Below are positions 1 to 46,544 of a stretch of DNA of 46,549 bases, in pieces. The stretch's first letter is position 1. The number at the start of each line of letters is the position of its first letter. Origin of the DNA: an uncultured Candidatus Saccharibacteria bacterium. GTDB taxonomy: Bacteria > Patescibacteriota > Minisyncoccia > Phycocordibacterales > GWA1-40-21. The position numbers were made by a program, and so were the translations under genes. The DNA lies in NCBI GenBank assembly GCA_964416925.1, contig CAYQFQ010000001.1, forward strand, positions 1-46,549, read 5' to 3'. Below the pieces are notes generated by a model. The model worked only from the letters and a program-made list of their open reading frames with translations. It searched no databases and was not told where the DNA came from.

Positions 1-13
1 CCTACTGGGCGCA
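1..13 (+). tRNA. 3' end of a tRNA cut by the window edge (identity unknown)
   Basis: CCTAC-TGGGCGC-A reads as T-stem 3' strand, acceptor 3' strand and discriminator. It is followed by the same hairpin plus anti-acceptor trailer (TGCGCCCA at 46-53) seen after four complete tRNAs. Confidence 0.4.
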
Positions 14-339
14 CAAATGAAAAATATGTAAATATTTTTCATTTGTGCGCCCAGAGTAAGCAATATGAATTGCTTACGTTAGGGGTCGAACAGCGGAACT
101 ATGTTTTTCTAGTAAGAAAAACAAGTGAGCTGGTGCCCAGACTTTTCCGAGTGGCGACGAGGAAAAAGTCGAGGGAGAAAGTGTACTCACGTCCCCTATT
201 TTAGGAATGTGACCACAGACATTAAAGATAGTTAGGATACTGTCCATGTAATGGAAGACTCCCTACTGAAAAAATTAGATTGGGCGGGGTCGCGAGATTT
301 TCTAGCAAGAAAATACTTGTGACCACAATATTATGTGAT
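14..339 (+). ncRNA. tRNA-trailer structured block: hairpin, anti-acceptor, GTAAG hairpin, then module 81-197 and further hairpin modules
   Basis: Hairpin 14-45. TGCGCCCA at 46-53 is complementary to 6-13. Hairpin GTAAGCAA..TTGCTTAC at about 56-78. Module closed by AGGGG (81-85) and CCCCT (193-197), containing a U-rich stem with AGTA loop (104-121), a hairpin with 12-nt loop GAGTGGCGACGA (140-170) and the motif GGAGAAAGTGTACTCACGT. Hairpin 288-324 contains G:T wobbles that pair only on this strand. Confidence 0.5.
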
Positions 340-421
340 GCACGGGTGGCGAAATTGGTACACGCACTTGCCTTAGGAGCAAGCGGAGCAATCCATGGAG
401 GTTCAAGTCCTCTCCCGTGCA
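340..421 (+). tRNA. tRNA-Leu(UAG)
   Basis: Cloverleaf read by eye: acceptor GCACGGG/CCCGTGC, anticodon loop CTTAGGA, long variable arm, T arm GGAGG-TTCAAGT-CCTCT. No encoded CCA. Confidence 0.9.
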
Positions 422-734
422 CAGACAAAAAAACACTTTATAAGTGTTTTTTTTGTGCACGGAGTAAGTGCTTAATAGCACTTACGCGAGAGGACTTGAA
501 AAGGTTGAATATATTTTGATTAGTGAACTCACAAATCTAAATATGAAACCTATACCGAATCTGTAAGATTCAAGACCCCTCTCTCGCGCACAAAAAACTT
601 AAACGAAATGCGACTAAGCATTTCGTTTTTTGTTTTTACAGCGAGAGAGGGCTCGAAAGCCGGAGGCAGACGTGCCGAGGCGAGGTCGCGGGTTTTGCTA
701 GCAAGCAAAAACCTGTGACCAAGTCTTCCTCGCC
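422..734 (+). ncRNA. tRNA-Leu trailer: two consecutive mirror modules with a pseudo tRNA-Leu 3' end between them
   Basis: Hairpin 427-453. GTGCACGG (454-461) is complementary to CCGTGCAC of the tRNA. GTAAGTGCT..AGCACTTAC hairpin follows. GAGAGGACTTGAA (487-499) is complementary to T loop plus T stem TTCAAGTCCTCTC. Degenerate direct copy of the tRNA 3' end, TTCAAGACCCCTCTCTCGCGCA (about 569-590). Second hairpin, then GCGAGAGAGGG (641-651), then hairpin 684-720. Confidence 0.5.
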
Positions 735-785
735 CACATAATAATTCTTAATAAAAAACCTTTATTTAGGGACGTTTTTTATTAC

Positions 786-1110: not shown

Positions 1111-3393
1111 TCACACTATTTCACAAGTCCCTCCCGCACATGCAAGCTCCTTTTTCACTTCAGTCTCATCTTGTCTCTCGTAAGTAATTAATTTCGCAAA
1201 ATCAATTGTTCCTAAAGCTTTAACCATCTCATTATATTTCTTTTCATCTATTTCTTCATAAGGCGCAAGTTGATATACATGATCATTTCTTGGTAAGAAT
1301 GATAATCCCCCGATTATGTCCCAATTTTTGTAAAGCCAATTTGCAACATCTATCCACTCACTCTCTCCGACATAAATAGTCACTGATGGATTGTGTTCTG
1401 TGTAATTTTCCTTCACCATCTTCCAAAATTCGAGTTGATCAAGTGCAGTCAAGTCATCTTTAAACTTAGAATTTTTTGGAGCCTTAACTGGAAATTCAAA
1501 CACATAAGTCATTGCACTTTCTTTCGACTGACCAACCTCTGGATAGTAAGGAACTCCCTGATCTCTCATCATCTTAAACAATGAGTCTGTGGTCGAAATT
1601 CTTATTCTTCTAATATAATACTGTGAATATCTTGTATGCATTCCTGAAGCGCAATCTACGGTCTGAGATACTGTTCCGGATGGCTTAACGCAAGTTGTAC
1701 AAGTTGCTTCATTTATCTTAAATCTCTTAGCGTAAGTCTGGTTTGTCTTTATTACCTCTTTTCTGAGTTTTCTTAGAATCTCTGGGTTCCTAACTGCTGG
1801 ACAATCCCATTGACCCGTAATAGACACACCAATCAATCTCTCTTTTTTACAATTCTCTGTCCACTCTTTAGACAAATAACCAAAATTAGTGAGAGTTGCT
1901 TGATATGTTCCAAGCATAGTAGCTAGTTTTATTTTTCTTAATAATGACTTCTCATCATCTTCATATCTTGCAACAACCTCAGAAAGATTACAGAACTGCT
2001 TATTTTGCAGAATGATTTCTCCACAAGGATTTACACCCATCTGTGTGACATCATTGTTTAAAACTTTTAGTCTTCTCTCTGGCAAAGCCTTTAAAAGACC
2101 TCCCTTATTGAAAATTCCTCTTTCTCCAGATCCGCTCTTCATCAAAGCAATCCATTCTTCCAAGAATTCAGTCGAAGAAGGTTTAGAGACATAAACGACT
2201 GAGTTATTTGCAATACTTCTTTGTGGTTCAGTAAGATAAAACTGTCCTTTCTTTGCATCTCTCATTAGTTCATCATCAAGATCTGAAAGTGAAATCAAAG
2301 CACTTCTTCTAACTCCACCTGAGACGACACAGTCACCAATCGAACAGACAATATCATGAACATCCAAGTTGTTTAATCTTCTTCCCTGTTTAGACAAGAC
2401 CTTCTTCTTAACCAAATTTATCAATCTTATAAGTGGTTCCGGTCCAGAAGCTTTTCCACCCATCACTTTCAACCTAGCACCAGCTGGTCTAACTTTTGAG
2501 TAATCAATTTCAACATCATTTCCTTCAAACCATGTCTTCATTGCAAAGACTAGTGCATCTGCCCAACCTTCTTTGCTGTCAGGAACAACAAAATTTGGAA
2601 GTTTCTTACCGGACTGAAATTTTATCTGTGGCAACTGTTGTACGTATTGGCTTTCAACAGAAAAACCCACACCTGTTCCACACATTGAGATATACATTAT
2701 TTCTCCAAAATCTTGGATGGCCATAGGAGCTATAAAAGAACAATTGTAAGCGCAGACATTTGTCTTCTCAGCAGCAGGACCAGCAAATTGCAAAAGCCTC
2801 ATTGATGGCATTACTTCCTGTTTAAGAATTCCCTCTCTTAACTCTGCATACTCTGCGTCCTTAATTAAGTTGCCCATCTTACCTTTCATGAACGCCATAT
2901 ATCGATCAACTGTCTCAATCCATGTTTCCCTTCTTCCTTCCGTATCTATCCATTTTGAATATGATCTGTAATATACAAACTCTCCCAATTGATTATGAAA
3001 ATATTTCTTGCTTTCCTCTGCAAGCTTTCTTAAATTTGCAGGAACTTGTACCCCCTGCTCTCTAAGTTTATTTCTTTCTTGTCTGTATATGATATATTCC
3101 TTCGCAGATTTAACATATTCACTCAAAATAAGTTCTTTTTCAACTATATCTTGGACACCTTCTACATCTGGAACAAAATCTTTGAACTTTTTTATTATAC
3201 GAACAAGTTCCGCATAGACCTTTGTAGCAACTAGTTCTGCTTCTTCGTAGGTTCCCTCATTCATAACGGTCATCGCCTTGAAGATTGCGTTGGCTATTTT
3301 TGTAACATCAAAAGGAGCAAGTGACCCGTCTCTCTTTTTAATATTTTTAATGAATACAATCTTACCTTTTGGAGTCTCGTTGCTCTTTACCAT
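1111..3393 (-). CDS. nrdJ: class II (adenosylcobalamin-dependent) ribonucleotide reductase with N-terminal ATP-cone
   Basis: ATP-cone-like N-terminus (IKKRDGSLAPFDVTKIANAI). NPCGEI...FCNLSEV and CVKPSGTVSQ motifs. C-terminal CAGGTCEIV. Start moved to MVKSNE (3393), because the first 42 aa of the ORF look like read-through. Confidence 0.85.
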   Translation of the reverse strand: MVKSNETPKGKIVFIKNIKKRDGSLAPFDVTKIANAIFKAMTVMNEGTYEEAELVATKVYAELVRIIKKFKDFVPDVEGVQDIVEKELILSEYVKSAKEYIIYRQERNKLREQGVQVPANLRKLAEESKKYFHNQLGEFVYYRSYSKWIDTEGRRETWIETVDRYMAFMKGKMGNLIKDAEYAELREGILKQEVMPSMRLLQFAGPAAEKTNVCAYNCSFIAPMAIQDFGEIMYISMCGTGVGFSVESQYVQQLPQIKFQSGKKLPNFVVPDSKEGWADALVFAMKTWFEGNDVEIDYSKVRPAGARLKVMGGKASGPEPLIRLINLVKKKVLSKQGRRLNNLDVHDIVCSIGDCVVSGGVRRSALISLSDLDDELMRDAKKGQFYLTEPQRSIANNSVVYVSKPSSTEFLEEWIALMKSGSGERGIFNKGGLLKALPERRLKVLNNDVTQMGVNPCGEIILQNKQFCNLSEVVARYEDDEKSLLRKIKLATMLGTYQATLTNFGYLSKEWTENCKKERLIGVSITGQWDCPAVRNPEILRKLRKEVIKTNQTYAKRFKINEATCTTCVKPSGTVSQTVDCASGMHTRYSQYYIRRIRISTTDSLFKMMRDQGVPYYPEVGQSKESAMTYVFEFPVKAPKNSKFKDDLTALDQLEFWKMVKENYTEHNPSVTIYVGESEWIDVANWLYKNWDIIGGLSFLPRNDHVYQLAPYEEIDEKKYNEMVKALGTIDFAKLITYERQDETEVKKELACAGGTCEIV

Positions 3394-3618
3394 TTTTTTA
3401 TTATTAATTATTAAATTTACACCTAATTTTACATCAAATACGCGCGAAAAAAAGTCTAACAAGGCTTTAGAAACCAAAAATAAGAAAGTGTAAAGAACGA
3501 CCTCTAAATAGTCTCTCAAATTATGATTTATTTACTCAAAAAAAAATAAATTTCCAAAAGACTTTTTTTTGTTTAGAAAATTTCCCACAAAAAATACCCC
3601 GTAAATGGGGTTTCTATA

Positions 3619-4107
3619 TTATTTTTTGACAATTGAAATAATATTTCCCACCTTAATACTGTTTTTTTCTACAAAACCATCGCTAACTTCTAAAACGTAT
3701 TTTGAATCAAAAACTGTTCCATAAACTTTCGGAAAAGTACTAGGTGAAAGAGATTTTTCTATACCGACAACCTTAAAATCCTGGTCTAACCAAATAATAT
3801 CGATTGAAAAATTCATATCCTTCATCCAAAAGCCATAATTACCCACAGAGTCAAATACAAACAGTATTCCTTGGCCTTCAGAAATTCCTGATCTCCCAGA
3901 AAGACCGAGCTCTTTCTTACAATGATCATCTGCAATCTGTGCAAGAATCTGTTTTTCACCCAAAATGAGAGTTTGGGTGTCATATTTACCACAAATATTA
4001 TCAGAGTGACCCAAACAATACACTATGACAATCACGATAGCGATAAACAAGAGAACACAAATCGATACTTTCTTATATGTTTTAATTAAATATGTAAAAT
4101 TACCCAT
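3619..4107 (-). CDS. DUF192 family protein with N-terminal membrane anchor
   Basis: GLSGRS...GILFVF...FWMKDMNFSIDIIWLD...VLEV pattern typical of DUF192 (COG1430). Start ambiguous (4134 or 4107). Confidence 0.7.
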   Translation of the reverse strand: MGNFTYLIKTYKKVSICVLLFIAIVIVIVYCLGHSDNICGKYDTQTLILGEKQILAQIADDHCKKELGLSGRSGISEGQGILFVFDSVGNYGFWMKDMNFSIDIIWLDQDFKVVGIEKSLSPSTFPKVYGTVFDSKYVLEVSDGFVEKNSIKVGNIISIVKK

Positions 4108-15595: not shown

Positions 15596-16357
15596 TTAAA
15601 TTTTGATTATATCTAATAATAAAAACATAGGGATTTCCTTTCTTGCTTTGTCCTCAGCCTTCTGACGTGGGCCAAGTTGGCTTTTTCGATTTGAACTCCA
15701 TTCCTCAATATTACATACCGCTAGTCCGTTTTTCTGTAATATTTTAAAATAAGTTTGTAGAGATTTGTGAAAAGTCACAGTGTATTCTTTTTTCTCTGGA
15801 TCTTTTTCTCCAGGATTCATCTCAATTTTGGTCATTATATCTGATGCATACGCATCAACCCTTCTATACTGGAGATCTTTCTTTTCATCAAAACCCCAGT
15901 CACTTTTCTTTGGTATTCTAAAGCATGGATGATTCAAAACAATATATGCATGCCCTTTGGATTTTAATACTCTTGAGACTTCTGAGAAAGCACCACTAGT
16001 ATTTTCGATATTTTGAAGCGCTAAAACAATCGAAAGTTTATCAAAAGTAGAATTTTCAAAAGGAAGCTTATCTGCCGGTGCGACTGAAAGCTCAATATCT
16101 TTTGGAGATTTTTCTTTCGCGATAGAGATGAGTTCCTCAGAAATATCGGTACCAGAAATACTTGCGCCAGATTTTATATACTCCCTTACAAAGAAGCCTT
16201 GACCGCATGCAACATCCAGGACCTTCTCCCCTTTTTTGAGAGACATTAGTCTAAGTAGATTCGGTAAAATCACTTCTTTTTGATATGTGTTATCACTATT
16301 TGTGAGTAAATCATCGTACCAATCTGCAACTTTTCCCCATGAGGTTTTTGTTTTCAT
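15596..16357 (-). CDS. class I SAM-dependent methyltransferase
   Basis: Motif I VLDVACGQGFF. Confidence 0.85.
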   Translation of the reverse strand: MKTKTSWGKVADWYDDLLTNSDNTYQKEVILPNLLRLMSLKKGEKVLDVACGQGFFVREYIKSGASISGTDISEELISIAKEKSPKDIELSVAPADKLPFENSTFDKLSIVLALQNIENTSGAFSEVSRVLKSKGHAYIVLNHPCFRIPKKSDWGFDEKKDLQYRRVDAYASDIMTKIEMNPGEKDPEKKEYTVTFHKSLQTYFKILQKNGLAVCNIEEWSSNRKSQLGPRQKAEDKARKEIPMFLLLDIIKI

Positions 16358-16450
16358 CCTGTTAAATACAGTTATCTTTAATAAAGTTATTCAATTATGA
16401 TTTTCTCATTATACTCACTTTTTCCTAGGTTGGTGTGTATATTTAACAGG
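16358..16450 (-). repeat. intergenic cassette copy A, with terminal inverted repeats abutting the start codon
   Basis: CCTGTTAAATA (16358-16368) and TATTTAACAGG (16440-16450). Paralogous to 16917-17007. Confidence 0.7.
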
Positions 16451-16472
16451 ACAAGTTCGTATATATGTTATT

Positions 16473-16916
16473 TTATCTCGCAAATCTGACTGGTATACTT
16501 ATACTGTCATCATTTTGTGGTAACCCTGAAGGATTATCCTTTTTTAATATCAATTCTCCTATTGTTATTGATGTTCCAGTCGCTATATTGAAATCCAAGT
16601 CTGCAGTAAAGTCTACAAATTCTGTTGTCATCCATTCACCGTCCGCAGTAGCAATACCTTGAGACAATACATTACCATTTATATCTTTTAGCTCGATGGG
16701 AAAACTTGCTTCAAAGAACCAAGTTCCTCTAGCTTTCCCAAAAATGTGAAGTGGACTTTTTATTGTAGAATTTGGCTCTGGATAATTAACCTGAATTAAA
16801 TCAGACTTATCTATCACAGGGATTACAACCGCACCTCTTCTACCCCAGTCAAGTGCTAAACCAAGACCTATTACAATGACAGCAATTAATCCAATTATAA
16901 TTATAATATTTCTCAT
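16473..16916 (-). CDS. Gmad2 immunoglobulin-like domain protein, membrane-anchored
   Basis: PLHIFGKARGTWFFEASFPIELKD matches the Gmad2 pattern. Confidence 0.6.
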   Translation of the reverse strand: MRNIIIIIGLIAVIVIGLGLALDWGRRGAVVIPVIDKSDLIQVNYPEPNSTIKSPLHIFGKARGTWFFEASFPIELKDINGNVLSQGIATADGEWMTTEFVDFTADLDFNIATGTSITIGELILKKDNPSGLPQNDDSISIPVRFAR

Positions 16917-17007
16917 CCTGTTAAATACAATTATTTTAATAAAATTATTTTATTGACCTTTGTTGAGATAATCACTTTTTCACATATCCACGTGTAGATT
17001 TAACAGG
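16917..17007 (-). repeat. intergenic cassette copy B
   Basis: CCTGTTAAAT (16917-16926) and ATTTAACAGG (16998-17007). Fills the space between the stop of the upstream gene and the next ATG. Confidence 0.7.
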
Positions 17008-17017
17008 ACAGGTGTTT

Positions 17018-18699: not shown

Positions 18700-18768
18700 A
18701 GCTGAAGTCTATCAAAAAAATAGCTTGAACAAAAGCCTTTTTTTAGGTATTATGAGCATCTTAACCAT

Positions 18769-18839
18769 TGGGGGATCGTCTAATGGTAGGACTTCGCCCT
18801 CTGGAGGCGAGTATTTTGGTTCGAATCCAAGTCCCCCAG
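18769..18839 (+). tRNA. tRNA-Gln(CUG)
   Basis: Acceptor TGGGGGA/TCCCCCA, anticodon loop CTCTGGA, T arm TTTGG-TTCGAAT-CCAAG. Promoter TTGAAC-N17-TATTAT upstream. Confidence 0.9.
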
Positions 18840-19029
18840 CAAATTAAAGGCCGAAAGGCTTTTTTAATTTGCTGGGGGAAGTGAGTGATAGTATCACTCA
18901 CGCCTTGGATTCGAACGCCGGAATACATTTTTCTTAGCAAAGAAAAATATGAGGCGGTGCCTAGACTAATCATACGCGACGGCGTATGATTAAGCCGAAG
19001 GAGAAAGTGTATTCACGTATCCAAGTTCC
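18840..19029 (+). ncRNA. tRNA-Gln mirror trailer (cleanest member of the family)
   Basis: Hairpin 18841-18870 with GAAA loop. TGCTGGGGGA at 18870-18879 (anti-acceptor, 10/10). Hairpin 18880-18901. CTTGGATTCGAAC at 18904-18916 (anti-T, 13/13). U-rich stem with AGCA loop at 18927-18948. Hairpin 18967-18992. GGAGAAAGTGTATTCACGT. Closing ATCCAAG at 19019-19025. Confidence 0.55.
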
Positions 19030-19149
19030 ACAATAAACACTCATCAACATATTTGTCAGTACAAATTCTGTCACAACACACAAAGCAAATAAACCTAGAA
19101 ATTATCTGGTGAAAAAACAACAAGATTATCAGATTAAATAATTAAAATA

Positions 19150-30489: not shown

Positions 30490-30562
30490 AGCCAAGGGCG
30501 AGGATCGAACTCGCGACCTGTGGTTTACGATACCACTGCTCTACCAACTGAGCTACCTTGGC
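30490..30562 (-). tRNA. tRNA-Thr(CGU)
   Basis: Acceptor GCCAAGG/CCTTGGC, anticodon arm GTGGT-ATCGTAA-ACCAC, T loop TTCGATC. No mirror trailer. Confidence 0.9.
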
Positions 30563-30756
30563 AAAAATACACGGAAGCCGTTGACCAGGAGACTAGGAAG
30601 TCTGATTGGTCACAAATTTCTTTCGTCGTCACTCAAGAAATTTTCGACCCCAGCTTGTATGTTTTTTCTACTGAAAAAACATTACTTCGCTTTTCAATCC
30701 TGACACGTGTGCAAAGCAGTTTGCACACTCAACAGCACCCTCCGTTACACTACGGG
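30563..30756 (-). ncRNA. tRNA-Thr(GGU) mirror trailer ending in a 15-nt copy of the tRNA 3' end
   Basis: Minus-sense order: GCTGTTG (anti-acceptor, one G:U), hairpin GTGTGCAAA..TTTGCACAC, CAGGATTGAA (anti-T), U-rich stem with AGTA loop (30662-30679), hairpin with loop GAGTGACGACGA (30608-30649), TCCTGGTCAACGGCT (30576-30590). Confidence 0.55.
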
Positions 30757-31006
30757 AGCCGTTGACCAGGATTGAACTGGTGACCTTGTCATTCGTTTAC
30801 ACCTCATCTTACGAGAGGACTAGACTGTATCTTTCCGCCTGAGGCGGACCCTTGTCAGTCGTTCGAGCGCTTTTTATAGCGCTACGGTCTTGTCCTTTTT
30901 AAAAGGAGATTAACCGTAATTCGGGATTCATATAAAAGTTACCAATTATATGGGCAGGGGTTCACGACCCACCAATGACATGCTCTACCAACTGAGCTAC
31001 AACGGC
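30757..31006 (-). tRNA. tRNA-Thr(GGU) interrupted by a 177-nt intron (30794-30970) after anticodon position 36
   Basis: Exon 1 (31006-30971): GCCGTTGTAGCTCAGTTGGTAGAGCATGTCATTGGT. Exon 2 (30793-30757): AATGACAAGGTCACCAGTTCAATCCTGGTCAACGGCT. Joined, they give a canonical 73-nt cloverleaf with loop TTGGTAA. Promoter TTGAAA-N17-TATTCT upstream. Confidence 0.8.
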
Positions 31007-39989: not shown

Positions 39990-42710
39990 TTATTGCGATT
40001 TTATTTCAAGCACACGGGTCATCCATCCACCGCTTGTTCCACCGACAACCACATTTCGCGCGCTCCACGAGGAAACACCACCATTAGTATCATGACCAGC
40101 AACTTCTGCTGTTGCATCAACTCGAGTTGTTCGTTGTATCATGCCTGTTGGAGGATTTTGAAGATTTGTATTAGTATTTCTGTGCCCAGCAAAACCTATC
40201 ACCCAGGAAGTTCCGTTAGTAACACCAAGAGTAAGCGCGGGGTAAGTAACCGTGGTGCCGGAGCTAGATTGAACACCGTTTACACCAATAGGACTTGCGG
40301 ATTGCCCACGATATACATGAGTAACAATTTCACTTGCTCCTGTCCAACCATTACTTGAATCTGCACCTGTTGCTATCCTATAAGCAAGAGTGCTTCCATT
40401 GGCATTGCCCCCACCAGACGAACTAATAACTGTCCAACCAGAAGGAGTTGTTGGACCAGTGGCATTTCCATCTCTGTAAGCAAAAGTTATAAGCAGATCT
40501 CCAACGTTATGGGCTGGAATAGTAGCATTAACTCCTTGAACAGCAGAGGATGCCACAAAGGTAATTGTGCTACATGCTGACGTAGTAAATGTAACATCTG
40601 ATCCATAACTAGTTCCAACAGAATTTGTGGCATAAGCACGAACATGATAAAGGGTATTACAGGTTAGTGCTGTAATACTGCTTGTAAATGATCCGGTACC
40701 CGTTCCATCTGAAGTCTTTGTTGGAAGAGCAATTGTTGGATTGATTGATGTACTCCAAACAATACCTCTTGATGTAACTGACGCCCCGCCATCTGAAGTA
40801 ACATTACCTCCACCAGTTGCTGTCGTTCTGGTAATACTTGTAATCGGACTAGCGGTTGTAACTGAAGGAAGAACCGGTGTTACAGAGCATGAGGTATTTG
40901 TATATGTTCCTGACATCGTCCCCGCTGTACACGTTCTTGTCTCTGGAGTACATGAGCTTGGATAAGTAACTGAAGATGAAAGATACGCGGTATTGAAGTA
41001 TCCACTTATTACACTCCCCCAAGGAGTTCCGGTACATCCAGCTGTACAAGTTGTTGCTGTATAGCTTCCTGACAAAGTTCCATTTGTACATGTCCTCAAT
41101 TCAGAGATACATGCACCGGACGGAGATGATGACGCATATGCTGTGTTGGAAGTTCCGCTTGTCATTGTGCCCCAAGGAGTTCCAGTACAGCTAGCCGGTA
41201 ATGTTGTAAATGTTCCATCGGCAGAGTATCCCGTCCCGGTACTATTTGTTGCATAACCTCGATAATAATATGTGGTACTTGCTGTTAGACCTGTTCTAGT
41301 CTGAGTAAATAATCCCGTGGTCGTAGCTCCTTCAGCGACACAATTTGTTGTTGGTGCTGGTGTAGCTCCGTAACATGTTCCACGTGCCGTTATAGAAGCT
41401 GGAGTTCCAAGAGATGAAACTGTGGCTCCGAGAATAGCACTCGATGTTGAAACAGAAGTAGAAGTTGGAAGTGTTACTGTTGGAACAACATAAACAATAT
41501 TTTCCTCGTTTGTTATGGAACAAGTTTTAGAACTTCCAGATGTTAAGGTGACCACACCAGAAGAATTACAGTCCCCAGCAAATGTTGTTGTATGTGTAGA
41601 AGAAGTTGCTTCTGTTACGGTATATGTTCCAGAATCAAAAACAGTGGAAGCACCAAGAGTAACTGTTGTGGCGCCCACTTTGTATGGAGCAAAATCAGAA
41701 GATGTTTTTGTTCCACCGTGATTGATAACTGTTTTATTTACAGTTAGATATGCAAGCTTTTCTTCGTTTATGATACTACAATTTTTTGTTTGATTTGGAA
41801 CAAGAGTGACCGCTCCACCAGAACTACAATTACCACCAATGGTGGCTGTATAATCAGCATTAGAACTTTCAGATACTGTGTGTGTACCAGAATCAAAAGT
41901 ATTTAAGTCACCCGAAATAACAGGAACAGCATCAACATAAAGAGTGAAATCTCCAGCAGTTTTATTTTGTCCATGATTAACGACTGTCTTGTTTACAATA
42001 ATTTTAGCTGGTTTTTCTTCGTTTGTTATTAAACAAATTTTAGCATCACCGGGAACAAGTGTTATAACTCCAGAAGAATCGCAGTCACCTGTAAATGACT
42101 CTGTGTAATCTGAAGAAAATGTCTCTGAAACAGTATAAGTGCCTGGTGAAAAAGATGTTGAAGAAGCTAAAGTTATTGTGGTAGTACCAACAGTAAATGG
42201 TGCAAAATCAGAAATAACTTTTGATCCACCGTGATTGATCACAGATTTTGTAACAGTTAAACCTGCTGGTGGTGTGATCTTTTTCCAGTGAGTTAGATAC
42301 GTACTCGCAGTCACAGAATTTGAATTCGAAATCATGTCGGGCCATGTAACTAAAACATCTATCTTTTTCTGGTTTGTATTTATCGTTGAGATGGTGAGCT
42401 GTCGAGTAAAAACACCTGAATTGTCAGATGAACCAGAAAGAACCCATTGCCCAGTAGAAGTTGAAAGACCATATGTGCCATCTATAAGATTACTAAAATT
42501 ATTATCTCTAATATTTCTAGAAACCTCTACAGCTTCACCTACTAAAATACTCGCACGTTCAATATTTGAAGCGTGAACCATCTGCCTATTTACACCTACC
42601 GTTGTGTTCATTATTGCAGATACAAATACCAAAAAAATCGAAATCGAGATCAAAAGCTCGACAAGAGAAAATGCTTTTAATTTATTAATAAATAATTGTT
42701 CCCTTTTCAT
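39990..42710 (-). CDS. 906-aa pilin-like protein with a modular repeat-rich extracellular region
   Basis: KAFSLVELLISISIF N-terminus. Three repeats of about 80 aa (VINHGG..DFAP..GTYTVSE..GDC.SSGV.TL..), two FN3-like segments, two Cys-rich CTGTPWG..RTCT.GT.SG.YT repeats, and a C-terminal domain of about 200 aa. Confidence 0.8.
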   Translation of the reverse strand: MKREQLFINKLKAFSLVELLISISIFLVFVSAIMNTTVGVNRQMVHASNIERASILVGEAVEVSRNIRDNNFSNLIDGTYGLSTSTGQWVLSGSSDNSGVFTRQLTISTINTNQKKIDVLVTWPDMISNSNSVTASTYLTHWKKITPPAGLTVTKSVINHGGSKVISDFAPFTVGTTTITLASSTSFSPGTYTVSETFSSDYTESFTGDCDSSGVITLVPGDAKICLITNEEKPAKIIVNKTVVNHGQNKTAGDFTLYVDAVPVISGDLNTFDSGTHTVSESSNADYTATIGGNCSSGGAVTLVPNQTKNCSIINEEKLAYLTVNKTVINHGGTKTSSDFAPYKVGATTVTLGASTVFDSGTYTVTEATSSTHTTTFAGDCNSSGVVTLTSGSSKTCSITNEENIVYVVPTVTLPTSTSVSTSSAILGATVSSLGTPASITARGTCYGATPAPTTNCVAEGATTTGLFTQTRTGLTASTTYYYRGYATNSTGTGYSADGTFTTLPASCTGTPWGTMTSGTSNTAYASSSPSGACISELRTCTNGTLSGSYTATTCTAGCTGTPWGSVISGYFNTAYLSSSVTYPSSCTPETRTCTAGTMSGTYTNTSCSVTPVLPSVTTASPITSITRTTATGGGNVTSDGGASVTSRGIVWSTSINPTIALPTKTSDGTGTGSFTSSITALTCNTLYHVRAYATNSVGTSYGSDVTFTTSACSTITFVASSAVQGVNATIPAHNVGDLLITFAYRDGNATGPTTPSGWTVISSSGGGNANGSTLAYRIATGADSSNGWTGASEIVTHVYRGQSASPIGVNGVQSSSGTTVTYPALTLGVTNGTSWVIGFAGHRNTNTNLQNPPTGMIQRTTRVDATAEVAGHDTNGGVSSWSARNVVVGGTSGGWMTRVLEIKSQ

Positions 42711-46020: not shown

Positions 46021-46470
46021 TTAGACCTCGCTATGCTTTGTGTTCTCCGGCTTTCGAATCCCACAAGAATACGACCGGTTGGAATTTCGACCATTACATG
46101 GTCAGTACCCTCATTGGATTTTTTGTTTCGCTCTGCTCACAAAAAATGCTCAATGAGGCTTCGAATCCCAACGCAAGTGAATACTGAGGGGATTCGGCTA
46201 TTACATAGCCAGGTACTTTTCCATCTCGAAGACTCGATAAGGAAAAGTCTTTCGAATCCCACACGGAGGCAAGCAGTTGCGAGACTAGCGGGATATATTC
46301 GGTCACGAGTTTTTTGTTCGCCGTCGCTCACAAAAACCCTCGACCCCGACTCGCTATTTTTCCTGCTAGAAAAATTAGCTCCGTCTTTCGAATCCCAGCG
46401 TGAGTGAATACTTTCACTCACTCCGGTCGCGCAAATAAAATAGCCCCCTTTTGGGGGCTATTTTTATTTG
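46021..46470 (-). ncRNA. tRNA-Asp trailer: mirror segment followed by a tandem array of at least four stem-closed modules
   Basis: Minus-sense order: hairpin 46436-46468, TGCGCGACCGG (anti-acceptor, 11/11), hairpin GTGAGTGAA..TTCACTCAC, TGGGATTCGAA (anti-T, 11/11). Then modules closed by GGGATTC/GAATCCC-type stems. TTCGAATCCCA recurs on the plus strand at 46053, 46160, 46251 and 46387. Confidence 0.55.
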
Positions 46471-46544
46471 CGCGACCGGTGGGATTCGAACCCATGACCT
46501 CTCCCGTGACAGGGGAGCGCTCTAACCAGCTGAGCTACGATCGC
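46471..46544 (-). tRNA. tRNA-Asp(GUC)
   Basis: Acceptor GCGATCG/CGGTCGC (one G:U), anticodon loop CTGTCAC, T arm ATGGG-TTCGAAT-CCCAC. Confidence 0.9.

Follow-up and report, generated by a model that had tools for sequence, protein, structure and literature searches.

What is the sequence at positions 18840-19029 of this patescibacterial DNA, directly behind a tRNA-Gln gene, and why does it mirror the 3′ third of its neighbor? We analyzed the whole 46,549-nucleotide stretch (the window) together with relatives of the sequence in genomes and metagenomes, which carry labels beginning with L. It is well supported that this sequence is one copy of a Patescibacteria-wide family of structured RNA modules of ~170-200 nt, for which we found no description, and that these modules attach to the 3′ ends of tRNA and transfer-messenger RNA (tmRNA) genes, on the tRNA strand. 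Each module consists, in order, of a hairpin (often terminator-like), a guide complementary to the neighboring tRNA, a two-arm core, and a direct copy of tRNA nt 59/60 to about 75 (direct repeat 2, DR2). Our answer to what such a module does is tentative: it may act in cis on its own tRNA by alternative pairing of the guide. The parts of the tRNA-Gln locus are as follows, with the basis of a call in brackets.

18725-18753, plus strand: sigma-70-like promoter of tRNA-Gln (promoter-like site call)
18769-18839/40, plus strand: tRNA-Gln(CUG) (ARAGORN; Rfam tRNA, 56 bits)
18769-18841, plus strand: direct repeat 1 (DR1), that is tRNA-Gln and CA, partner of the guide
18819-18831, plus strand: T loop and T-stem 3′ strand of tRNA-Gln, GTTCGAATCCAAG (sequence), with the T loop at 18820-18826 and the T-stem 3′ strand at 18827-18831
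18832-18841, plus strand: TCCCCCAGCA, directly after the T stem (sequence), with the acceptor 3′ strand at 18832-18838, the discriminator G at 18839 and CA at 18840-18841
18842-18869, plus strand: hairpin H, stem GGCC/GGC, GAAA loop, A-tract 5′ and T-tract 3′
18870-18879, plus strand: guide part 1 (anti-acceptor), TGCTGGGGGA (sequence)
18880-18901, plus strand: hairpin hp1, AGTGAGTGA-TAGT-ATCACTCAC, with a GC linker to 18903 (sequence, fold)
18904-18916, plus strand: guide part 2 (anti-T), CTTGGATTCGAAC, which is CTTGG-ATTCGAA-C (sequence)
18909-19011, plus strand: type-A core (covariance model R1, 87.8 bits, E 3.5e-18; covariation statistics)
18916-18919/18953-18956, plus strand: core helix Pa, then a GGA/GA internal loop
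about 18923-18951, plus strand: core Pb, a U-rich hairpin with AGCA loop, followed by GUG and Pc
18960-18962/18999-19001, plus strand: core helix Pc
18964-18996, plus strand: core Pd, a hairpin with GACG loop and bulged A
19006-19017, plus strand: optional small hairpin AGUG-UAUU-CACG (compensatory variants in relatives)
19019-19032, plus strand: DR2, beginning ATCCAAGTTCC (19019-19029)

All coordinates and sequence parts that the original prediction had assigned to this locus agreed when re-read from the sequence. Guide part 1 is a perfect reverse complement of nt 66-75 of its own tRNA (10/10 Watson-Crick), and guide part 2 perfectly complements the T-stem 3′ strand, the whole T loop and G53 (nt 53-65). 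Hairpin hp1 falls precisely on the 65/66 junction of the target, creating a three-way junction. Hairpin H resembles an intrinsic terminator (terminator-like match at 18846-18863), and in the predicted fold its stem runs on into the helix formed by the tRNA tail and the guide. The segment 18815-19035 folds at -101.5 kcal/mol, compared with -50.8 +/- 4.5 for shuffles (z = -11.4). DR2 opens with ATCCAAG, a perfect direct copy of nt 59-65, and continues with TTCCACA, a decayed acceptor 3′ strand; against the guide it has 6 Watson-Crick and 2 G.U pairs out of 10. Two parts had to be redefined. The closing copy, first described as imperfect (19019-19029), spans nt 59/60 to about 75 and is far better kept in most copies, and the supposedly conserved 19-mer GGAGAAAGTGTAYTCACGT is the end of the core plus the optional small hairpin, no universal element. 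In relatives this small hairpin appears as GUG/CAC, GCG/CGC or CAUG/CAUG.

The genome and metagenome scans rest on two sequence motifs, and the resulting sample is skewed to A/B/C-type cores. Motif 1, built from three copies in the window (TCGAAMRNCGGAR, 3-7 nt, TTTTTCT, 0-1 nt, AGYA), has a chance expectation of 0 in the window and matched 39 loci in 185,579 species genomes (one per species). All 39 lie in Patescibacteria and in metagenome-assembled genomes, from hosts labeled by their depositors as Paceibacterota, Parcubacteria, Nomurabacteria, Vogelbacteria, Taylorbacteria, Minisyncoccia and Saccharibacteria. Motif 2, in which no T-loop complement is required, found at least 120 loci when run on metagenome contigs. 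A covariance model of the core then recovered 54 copies with E < 0.03 from 40 sources, the E-values being rough owing to short calibration. The original prediction had proposed such a model and a wider search, and had allowed for a local duplication artifact; the family extends beyond the window, and that alternative is excluded.

In the genome loci, the core mostly begins 45-108 nt past a same-strand tRNA, and the others are second units of arrays or edge-cut loci. Among the metagenome matches listed, 60 are no more than 130 nt from a tRNA or tmRNA, and another 21 are at 130-400 nt. At least 15 tRNA identities carry modules, and a tmRNA does so once in the genome set (L015) and once in the metagenome set (L048). 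Those tRNAs with encoded CCA that we looked at carry no full module. A search of the whole window against Rfam 15 returned five tRNA matches only, permissive scans of 18760-19100 and 1-800 gave only tRNA and noise, and no Rfam 15 family reached its gathering threshold on any trailer (tmRNA, RNase P, T-box, 6S, ribozymes, GOLLD/ROOL, HEARO and others). Likewise, our literature searches returned no relevant paper on such modules. The novelty that had been claimed for the element thus stands as far as it can be tested.

On the tRNA strand, the core forms a genuine RNA structure. It runs from Pa (4 bp) through an internal loop of GGA opposite GA to Pb, a U-rich hairpin with an AGYA tetraloop, then GUG, Pc (3-4 bp), the hairpin Pd, AGAU or GA, and the optional small hairpin. 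Pd carries a G(A/G)CG tetraloop and a bulged A, and optionally a tandem-GA extension. When 24 type-A cores were checked by hand against this structure, 90.9% of paired cells could pair, compared with 44-49% when the 3′ partners were slid, and 23/33 pairs showed compensatory changes. Alignment A3, which holds 41 model-aligned copies and, being fitted to the covariance model, leans towards it, gave 93.1% paired cells (42-50% slid), compensatory changes in 27/33 pairs and a covariation score of 0.671 against 0.216 for shuffled alignments, with 0/500 shuffles as high. An independent MAFFT alignment analyzed with RNAalifold also arrives at these Pa and Pb pairs. In 38/41 copies the better fold is that of the tRNA-sense strand, which has twice the G.U pairs, and paired core columns contain 33 G.U against 12 A.C. 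An antisense transcript as the functional strand was ruled out by these fold energies and counts. A K-turn was rejected by eye, the bulge being 1 nt and not 3.

The single architecture that the original prediction described has to be widened to take in at least one more core family (S-type) as well as a shallower guide register. Among the cores, type B (GGGGUCG...GUGACCGA) is a variant homologous to type A. The S-type core, known from 8 copies, consists of a long hairpin, GUGUACUG, a small hairpin with a UGUAA loop, and AGAU; it shares the guide and direct-repeat chassis with the A and B types. Its copies include the first Leu unit, two Asp units and 205-270 of the window as well as units in L007, L022, L028, L030 and L031. 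Further core types are D (L030, 2690-2780) and E (L007, 345-440).

The guide tracks the tRNA beside it. Over 10 nt, the best anti-acceptor match averages 8.9/10 against a module's own tRNA and 5.9/10 against other tRNAs, and only 1.1% of non-cognate pairs reach 9/10. Over 1178 positions, 94% of guide bases are Watson-Crick with their own tRNA; with 15 G.U against 8 A.C, the helix is almost purely Watson-Crick. The guide also follows variants of the T loop, TTGAA accompanying TTCAA and TCGGA accompanying TCCGA. Across seven TTCAA loops and one TCCGA loop in the metagenome set, the guide complement shows 1 mismatch in 40 positions. DR2 does not contain nt 54-58, and the guide complement to these nucleotides nonetheless follows the tRNA variants. 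The earlier claim that complementarity co-varies with the tRNA is thereby confirmed. Together with the trailer data below, these results support the structural half of a cis-acting hypothesis raised with it, namely a trailer complementary to the 3′ third of the tRNA.

Guides occur in two registers. In the deep T-register, the guide complements nt 54-75, usually in two parts with a hairpin between them at 65/66; in the shallow end-register, it complements nt 71-75 together with five or six bases of the trailer. The 57 unique tRNA-adjacent metagenome copies comprise 29 of the T-register, 25 of the end-register and 3 of neither. The deep-class hairpin, hp1, has a conserved base and a CUGC loop in most relatives, and this loop also marks the sole hairpin between tRNA and guide in the end-register class. 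Most end-register copies (L041-L160, for example L042, L047 and L063) stand behind tRNA-Glu, and those looked at by eye have a distinct core (GAGUCCGGGGCUG...UUGUGGCUCA).

The end-register guides are perfect over 10 nt in 19/25 copies. At tRNA-Glu loci, 11 distinct trailer/guide pairs occur, of which 9 pair in full and the other two contain 1 and 2 mismatches. The trailer bases are free to vary, and the helix therefore covaries beyond what mere shared ancestry would give; at these orthologous loci, the sequence comparison suggests that the helix is maintained where it sits. Since the guide covaries with T-loop variants as well as with freely varying trailer positions, selection appears to maintain the helix that joins tRNA tail and module. 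The guide can remain perfect while the adjacent direct copies decay, as in the Gln copy of the window, L005, L011 and L030 unit 2. The last of these lacks hp1 and carries a contiguous, perfect 19-nt complement of tRNA-Val at 200 nt from the tRNA.

The second potential partner of the guide is DR2. It starts at T-loop nt 59/60 and usually ends just past the discriminator and CA. Its T-stem part is the same as the tRNA in nearly all copies, so a second partner of the guide is preserved, and its acceptor part is decayed in about a third. The guide fits the real tRNA at 91% and DR2 at 75%. Including G.U, guide and DR2 can pair at 75% of anti-acceptor and 86% of T-part positions, and 18 DR2 transitions retain pairing as G.U compared with 9 that break it.

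The hairpin between tRNA and guide is variable, and the terminator-like form is missing from some relatives (L017, L034). In L004, L005 and L019 its loop contains GCGAAGC, a classic, very stable mini-hairpin sequence, and L034 has the related GCGCAAAGCG.

Because the fold is conserved, the helix appears to be selected, a second partner is present in DR2 and the modules lie in tRNA transcription units, we infer a module with alternative pairings. Our preferred reading, a tentative one, is that of a trailer RNA made by read-through, with a guide that would switch between the tRNA tail and its own DR2 and so gate maturation or release of the tRNA. The module would be made by read-through or co-transcription with the tRNA, which fits the spacing of 12-45 nt seen where modules lie within tRNA clusters (L027). 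The guide would have two mutually exclusive partners. In state A, it would pair with the real tRNA tail, extending the trailer hairpin into the acceptor and T arms so that the 3′ third of the tRNA is masked or unzipped. In state B, it would pair with DR2, closing the core into a three-way junction and freeing the tRNA. The cis device would thus gate 3′ maturation or release of its own tRNA, with the core as the part presumably read by a ligand or protein, and spread, duplication and core swapping would proceed independently of this function. Folding of the whole transcript gives a third arrangement at minimum free energy, with the guide bound to DR1 and DR2 bound to the 5′ acceptor strand of the tRNA.

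Several observations weigh against a gating trailer. At Gln, a terminator-like hairpin with a T-tract lies between tRNA and guide, and a similar hairpin is found at Asp, so much transcription may stop ahead of the module. In the deep register, state A could form only by destroying the tRNA fold, which is expected to form first. Given its almost purely Watson-Crick pairing, the guide helix might just as well be a palindrome at the DNA level. Copies without an intact upstream tRNA persist (L008 second locus, where only a tRNA remnant is left upstream, and L031). Turnover of modules is high, and the variety of core types behind the same tRNA, together with an empty tRNA-Val(UAC) in L035, is odd for an essential host function.

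In the main rival reading, the module is a selfish, guide-bearing, non-autonomous mobile element, intron-like or like a miniature inverted-repeat transposable element (MITE). Such an element would insert by pairing of guide and target, duplicate nt 59-75, keep its fold for movement and depend on an enzyme encoded elsewhere. We regard this as possible, if somewhat unlikely. Direct repeats bound each unit, the targets (tRNA and tmRNA 3′ ends) are classic integration sites, and tandem arrays occur in which distal units score lower. When orthologous loci were compared, as had been proposed with the original prediction, module presence differed: tRNA-Val(UAC), empty in L035, is filled with different types in L030, L007 and L010. 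Similarly, tRNA-Arg(UCU) carries types A, B and D in different genomes, cores at least 95% identical stand behind Glu, Val, Asn and Ser tRNAs with flanks matched locally, and the syntenic loci of L026 and L037 have different tRNAs occupied. Several unrelated cores share one chassis. Module hairpin loops have themselves received insertions, in the Pd loop of L018 (2856-2981) and in the hp1 loop of a partial module in L009 (1340-1500). In L008 (2200-6190, minus strand), two modules with a tRNA-Glu(CUC) guide bracket a 3.4-kb segment with three hypothetical open reading frames (ORFs) and a UDG-family protein; the ORFs beside the L009 copy are likewise hypothetical or UDG-family proteins.

The original prediction had raised this mobile element as its second hypothesis, and the signs of spread it implied are there: direct repeats, arrays, an empty site, varied core types and recombinants. 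The machinery is not. Pfam identified no transposase, integrase, recombinase, reverse transcriptase or HUH protein among 40 ORFs of the window, and an all-against-all BLAST of ORFs from 40 sources found no protein family common to more than 5 loci, so no such enzyme recurs near the copies. In 2.9 million viral contigs, the family motif had 0 matches, and there is therefore no sign of phage origin. Copies within one genome are diverged from each other, so no recent burst has taken place. For each new tRNA, both guide halves and the direct repeat would have to be rewritten, and no mechanism is known to do this. The trailer/guide covariation at tRNA-Glu points to selection in place. Modules do spread, duplicate and swap cores by recombination through repeats, and this can mimic transposition. 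The two L008 modules share a left part of 110 nt and a right part of 30 nt around a differing middle, and in L026 a type-A core without its own DR2 is followed by the remnant of a type-B unit. From these recombinant copies, core swapping can explain part of the apparent mobility. Insertion into pre-existing palindromes was rejected, since a search for empty anti-T/T palindromes as prior insertion sites found none. Host function and mobility may both hold, one as the route of origin and spread and the other as the reason for maintenance.

A stand-alone small RNA is an unlikely explanation. Here the guide would pair with DR2 to replicate an acceptor/T-stem minihelix, RNase P, RNase Z and the CCA-adding enzyme would excise and stabilize the payload core on this tRNA-like scaffold, and the match to the tRNA would reflect local duplication at origin. 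The guide:DR2 pairing given above is possible in most copies, DR2 transitions mostly retain it, and identity usually extends through the discriminator and CA. Intact cores also persist where the upstream tRNA is lost, and different payload cores stand on the same scaffold. Yet about a third of copies have a decayed DR2 acceptor part alongside a guide that is still perfect against the real tRNA, and the complement of nt 54-58 has no partner in DR2 but covaries with the tRNA. Additionally, the core replaces the T loop that these enzymes recognize, and leader and trailer would be base-paired, which is unfavorable for RNase P.

Improbable, in our judgment, is growth of ordinary terminator hairpins into the tRNA by template-switch (quasi-palindrome) mutation, with an unrelated small RNA downstream and the mirror as a by-product. 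The central hairpin is often like a normal bidirectional terminator, and the helix consists almost entirely of Watson-Crick pairs. A tRNA-Val(GAC) with encoded CCA in L037 (2580-2700) has no module, and its terminator stem still pairs with the CACCA end. Against this origin, the mirror goes no further than nt 53/54, where the T loop begins, in 29/29 deep-register metagenome copies, is usually split at 65/66 by a conserved hairpin and abuts the core at a fixed distance, and a direct copy follows 93-109 nt after the guide in most copies. The perfect guide of L030 unit 2, 200 nt from its tRNA, is equally hard to obtain in this way.

Islands and prophages integrated at tRNA and tmRNA genes use the region from T loop to 3′ end as target, are flanked by direct repeats and regenerate the tRNA. 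The module has the same target and flanking repeats (a DR1/DR2 identity block of nt 59/60 to about 75 in most copies, running from the T loop to the tRNA end), and tmRNA genes are used too, so that it could be the scar or attachment site of an integrase-mediated island (attL/attR, T-loop sublocation). We consider this highly improbable. Only about 170 nt without any ORF lie between the repeats, this interval is a conserved, co-varying RNA fold, and it holds an inverted copy of the target, which is no feature of attachment sites; no tyrosine or serine recombinase lies between the repeats, and Pfam found no integrase among the window ORFs. Plain 3′-end direct repeats without a module do occur about 2.8 kb downstream of an L039 tRNA-Arg(UCG) (3655-3727, minus strand) and about 2.2 kb downstream of an L010 tRNA-His (3371-3445, plus strand), and these look like ordinary small integrated islands.

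Similarly remote is an intron-like insertion in the T loop, with nt 1-58 as exon 1, DR2 as exon 2 and the guide as a group I internal guide sequence (IGS; P10 part 5′, P1 part 3′): the order of guide halves, the minimum-free-energy fold and the occurrence of group I introns in tRNA genes of these bacteria agree with it, and against it stand a tRNA that is complete without splicing, an often decayed DR2 acceptor part, the lack of an Rfam intron match, a core of only about 95 nt, no U.G at the junction (58/59) and no conserved terminal G by eye, and an end-register class that leaves the T loop untouched. Group I and II introns are likewise structured RNAs with a segment complementary to sequence upstream of the insertion point (IGS P1/P10; exon- and intron-binding sites, EBS-IBS), which varies with each copy, tracks the flank and has the half order P10 then P1. 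They pair over 4-15 bp, compared with 20-45 bp for the module, which also differs in having no intron core, a host gene complete unspliced and a 3′ flank copy that is often decayed. The group I model RF00028 (P3-P9 core) matches no module and gives 56 bits on a genuine group I intron in the anticodon loop of an L011 tRNA-Phe(GAA), which a type-A module follows (3015-3245). At about 190 nt, the module is shorter than the six-domain group II RNA (at least 400 nt) and has no Rfam group II match; its GTRAG is merely the base of hp1, not the group II 5′ GUGYG.

Other known systems share single features with the module. The archaeal pre-tRNA-Trp box C/D guide lies in an anticodon-loop intron, has C/D boxes and a K-turn, pairs over about 10 nt and directs 2′-O-methylation. 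Like the module, it is a guide within a tRNA precursor that pairs with its own tRNA in cis; the module differs as a bacterial 3′ trailer pairing with nt 54-75 and without C/D boxes by eye. Box C/D and H/ACA guides were rejected by eye, as boxes are lacking and the target leaves no nucleotide unpaired at the junction. Riboswitch aptamers likewise combine a three-way junction, two hairpin arms and a closing-helix strand shared with a competing helix. They compete with a terminator or ribosome-binding site, whereas the module would compete with the upstream tRNA, has its aptamer-like part downstream and has no Rfam match. In IS200/IS605 elements and IS110 bridge RNAs, an internal sequence pairs with the flanking target and sets specificity, as in the module, and IS110 also has two guide parts separated by a hairpin. 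IS200/IS605 elements use 4-nt guides, however, and IS110 uses two loops that read both DNA strands beside a DEDD recombinase gene. No DEDD recombinase is found in the 40 window ORFs and no shared protein near the 39 loci, and both guide halves complement the same tRNA-sense strand, contiguously on the target, unlike bridge (seek) RNA.

Plant mitochondrial t-elements, and tRNA scaffolds for RNA expression, use an acceptor/T-like minihelix as a processing and stability signal for non-tRNA RNA, and the closing helix of the module is similar to such a minihelix. Unlike the module, these keep the T loop, are unmatched to a neighboring tRNA and have no guide against a real tRNA. As for tRNA-like domains (those of tmRNA, viral tRNA-like structures and YrlA), the core replaces the T loop, and ARAGORN and Rfam call none. 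MITEs have element-specific terminal inverted repeats and a short direct target-site duplication; in the module, inverted repeats close each unit, but they derive from the target and differ for each tRNA, and the direct repeat is 17-20 nt. The intrinsic terminator describes the hairpin part only (18846-18863). A retron RNA is contradicted by the lack of a reverse transcriptase among the window ORFs and by a part order that does not fit; retrons, integron attC sites and bulge-helix-bulge introns were also considered by eye and rejected, as was a primer-binding site for reverse transcription, since the complement follows the genomic trailer and not CCA. Because a defining feature of each of these families is lacking, riboswitches and MITEs excepted, we file the module under none of them. 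As a broader description, it is possible but doubtful that the module belongs to a new class of RNA device, a 3′ trailer with a programmable guide to its own tRNA. It would then be either a riboswitch-like sensor with the tRNA as expression platform, gating maturation by reversible unzipping and release of the acceptor and T arms, or a protein-poor, RNA-guided mobile element that homes to tRNA and tmRNA tails and restores them.

If confirmed, the modules would be a large, lineage-wide RNA family in a little-understood bacterial branch, present on a large share of the tRNA genes examined, and an RNA with a guide of 20 nt or more against the structured 3′ third of a neighboring tRNA, re-matched for more than 15 tRNA identities and for tmRNA. 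Were the module to gate maturation, this would be a kind of tRNA regulation for which we know of no precedent. As a mobile element, it would use guide-based targeting without a visible enzyme, of interest for genome engineering. Either reading implies a tRNA-by-tRNA layer of RNA-based control or parasitism in Patescibacteria that we have not found described, and accounts for the "junk" after tRNA genes in these genomes. Annotation should also gain, as split or duplicated tRNA 3′ ends can mislead tRNA finders and island predictors.

Within the window, the same order of parts recurs at a truncated tRNA (1-13), tRNA-Leu, tRNA-Thr(GGU) and tRNA-Asp, and no module is present at tRNA-Ser or tRNA-Thr(CGU); the original count of five of seven tRNA genes was correct. 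These further copies are made up as follows.

1-335, plus strand: array after a tRNA cut by the window edge (perfect 23-nt inverted repeat; R1, 106.9 bits)
1-13, plus strand: DR1 of this array
14-45, plus strand: hairpin
46-54, plus strand: anti-acceptor
55-78, plus strand: hp1
79-90, plus strand: anti-T
84-185, plus strand: type-A core
about 193-199, plus strand: DR2
about 205-270, plus strand: distal S-type unit (S-type match)
283-330, plus strand: distal partial B-like hairpin
340-735, plus strand: Leu locus (R1, 20.8 bits; S-type match), with tRNA-Leu(UAG) at 340-422 followed by a hairpin
454-464, plus strand: Leu anti-acceptor, followed by hp1
487-500, plus strand: Leu anti-T
about 501-575, plus strand: Leu S-type core
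571-592, plus strand: Leu DR2, decayed
641-657, plus strand: guide of the second Leu unit, preceded by a hairpin
651-729, plus strand: partial core of the second Leu unit
30571-30786, minus strand: Thr(GGU) locus (R1, 60.7 bits), with the 3′ exon of the tRNA at 30786-30757 followed by a hairpin
30739-30729, minus strand: Thr(GGU) anti-acceptor, imperfect
30728-30707, minus strand: Thr(GGU) hp1
30703-30693, minus strand: Thr(GGU) anti-T
30699-30600, minus strand: Thr(GGU) type-B core
30590-30576, minus strand: Thr(GGU) DR2
46040-46544, minus strand: Asp locus (R1, 59.4 bits; S-type match), with tRNA-Asp at 46544-46470
46469-46433, minus strand: Asp hairpin
46432-46423, minus strand: Asp anti-acceptor
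46422-46400, minus strand: Asp hp1
46398-46387, minus strand: Asp anti-T
46393-46292, minus strand: Asp type-B core
about 46260-46170 and 46170-46070, minus strand: distal S-type units of Asp, then a truncated fourth unit

At Leu, the anti-T sequence ACTTGAA fits the loop TTCAAGT of tRNA-Leu, and at Thr(GGU), GATTGAA fits the loop TTCAATC. The Thr(GGU) DR2 is identical to the tRNA at 12/12 positions over nt 61-72, and tRNA-Thr(CGU) is next in line beyond this module, at 30562. The units of the Asp array all begin with TGGGATTCGAA. The tRNA-Thr(GGU) itself (31006-30750, minus strand) contains an insert of ~184 nt after the anticodon (..cattggt / insert / aatgaca..). With its anticodon loop broken up by these ~184 nt, the tRNA goes undetected by ARAGORN and Rfam, as does the insert. 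The insert is probably an intron, and RF00028 gave no group I match to it at E <= 5.

The window has about 35% G+C, and its genes are ordinary cellular ones, among them a class II ribonucleotide reductase, RNase J, type IV pilus parts, a release factor and two-component sensors. The protein adjoining the Gln module has its best relative at 55% identity, and several named relatives are from Patescibacteria. In the ribonucleotide reductase ORF (1111-3519, minus strand, 802 aa), Pfam domains of that enzyme cover only the first 380 residues and the remainder is without a match. Two similar stretches of ~100 nt, at 16351-16456 and 16910-17013, are 76-83% identical, lie upstream of adjacent small ORFs and are probably duplicated 5′ regions. 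Lastly, three 31-nt repeats at 41500-42043, spaced 255-258 nt apart, lie within a pilin-like ORF of 906 aa (39990-42710) and are probably internal protein repeats.

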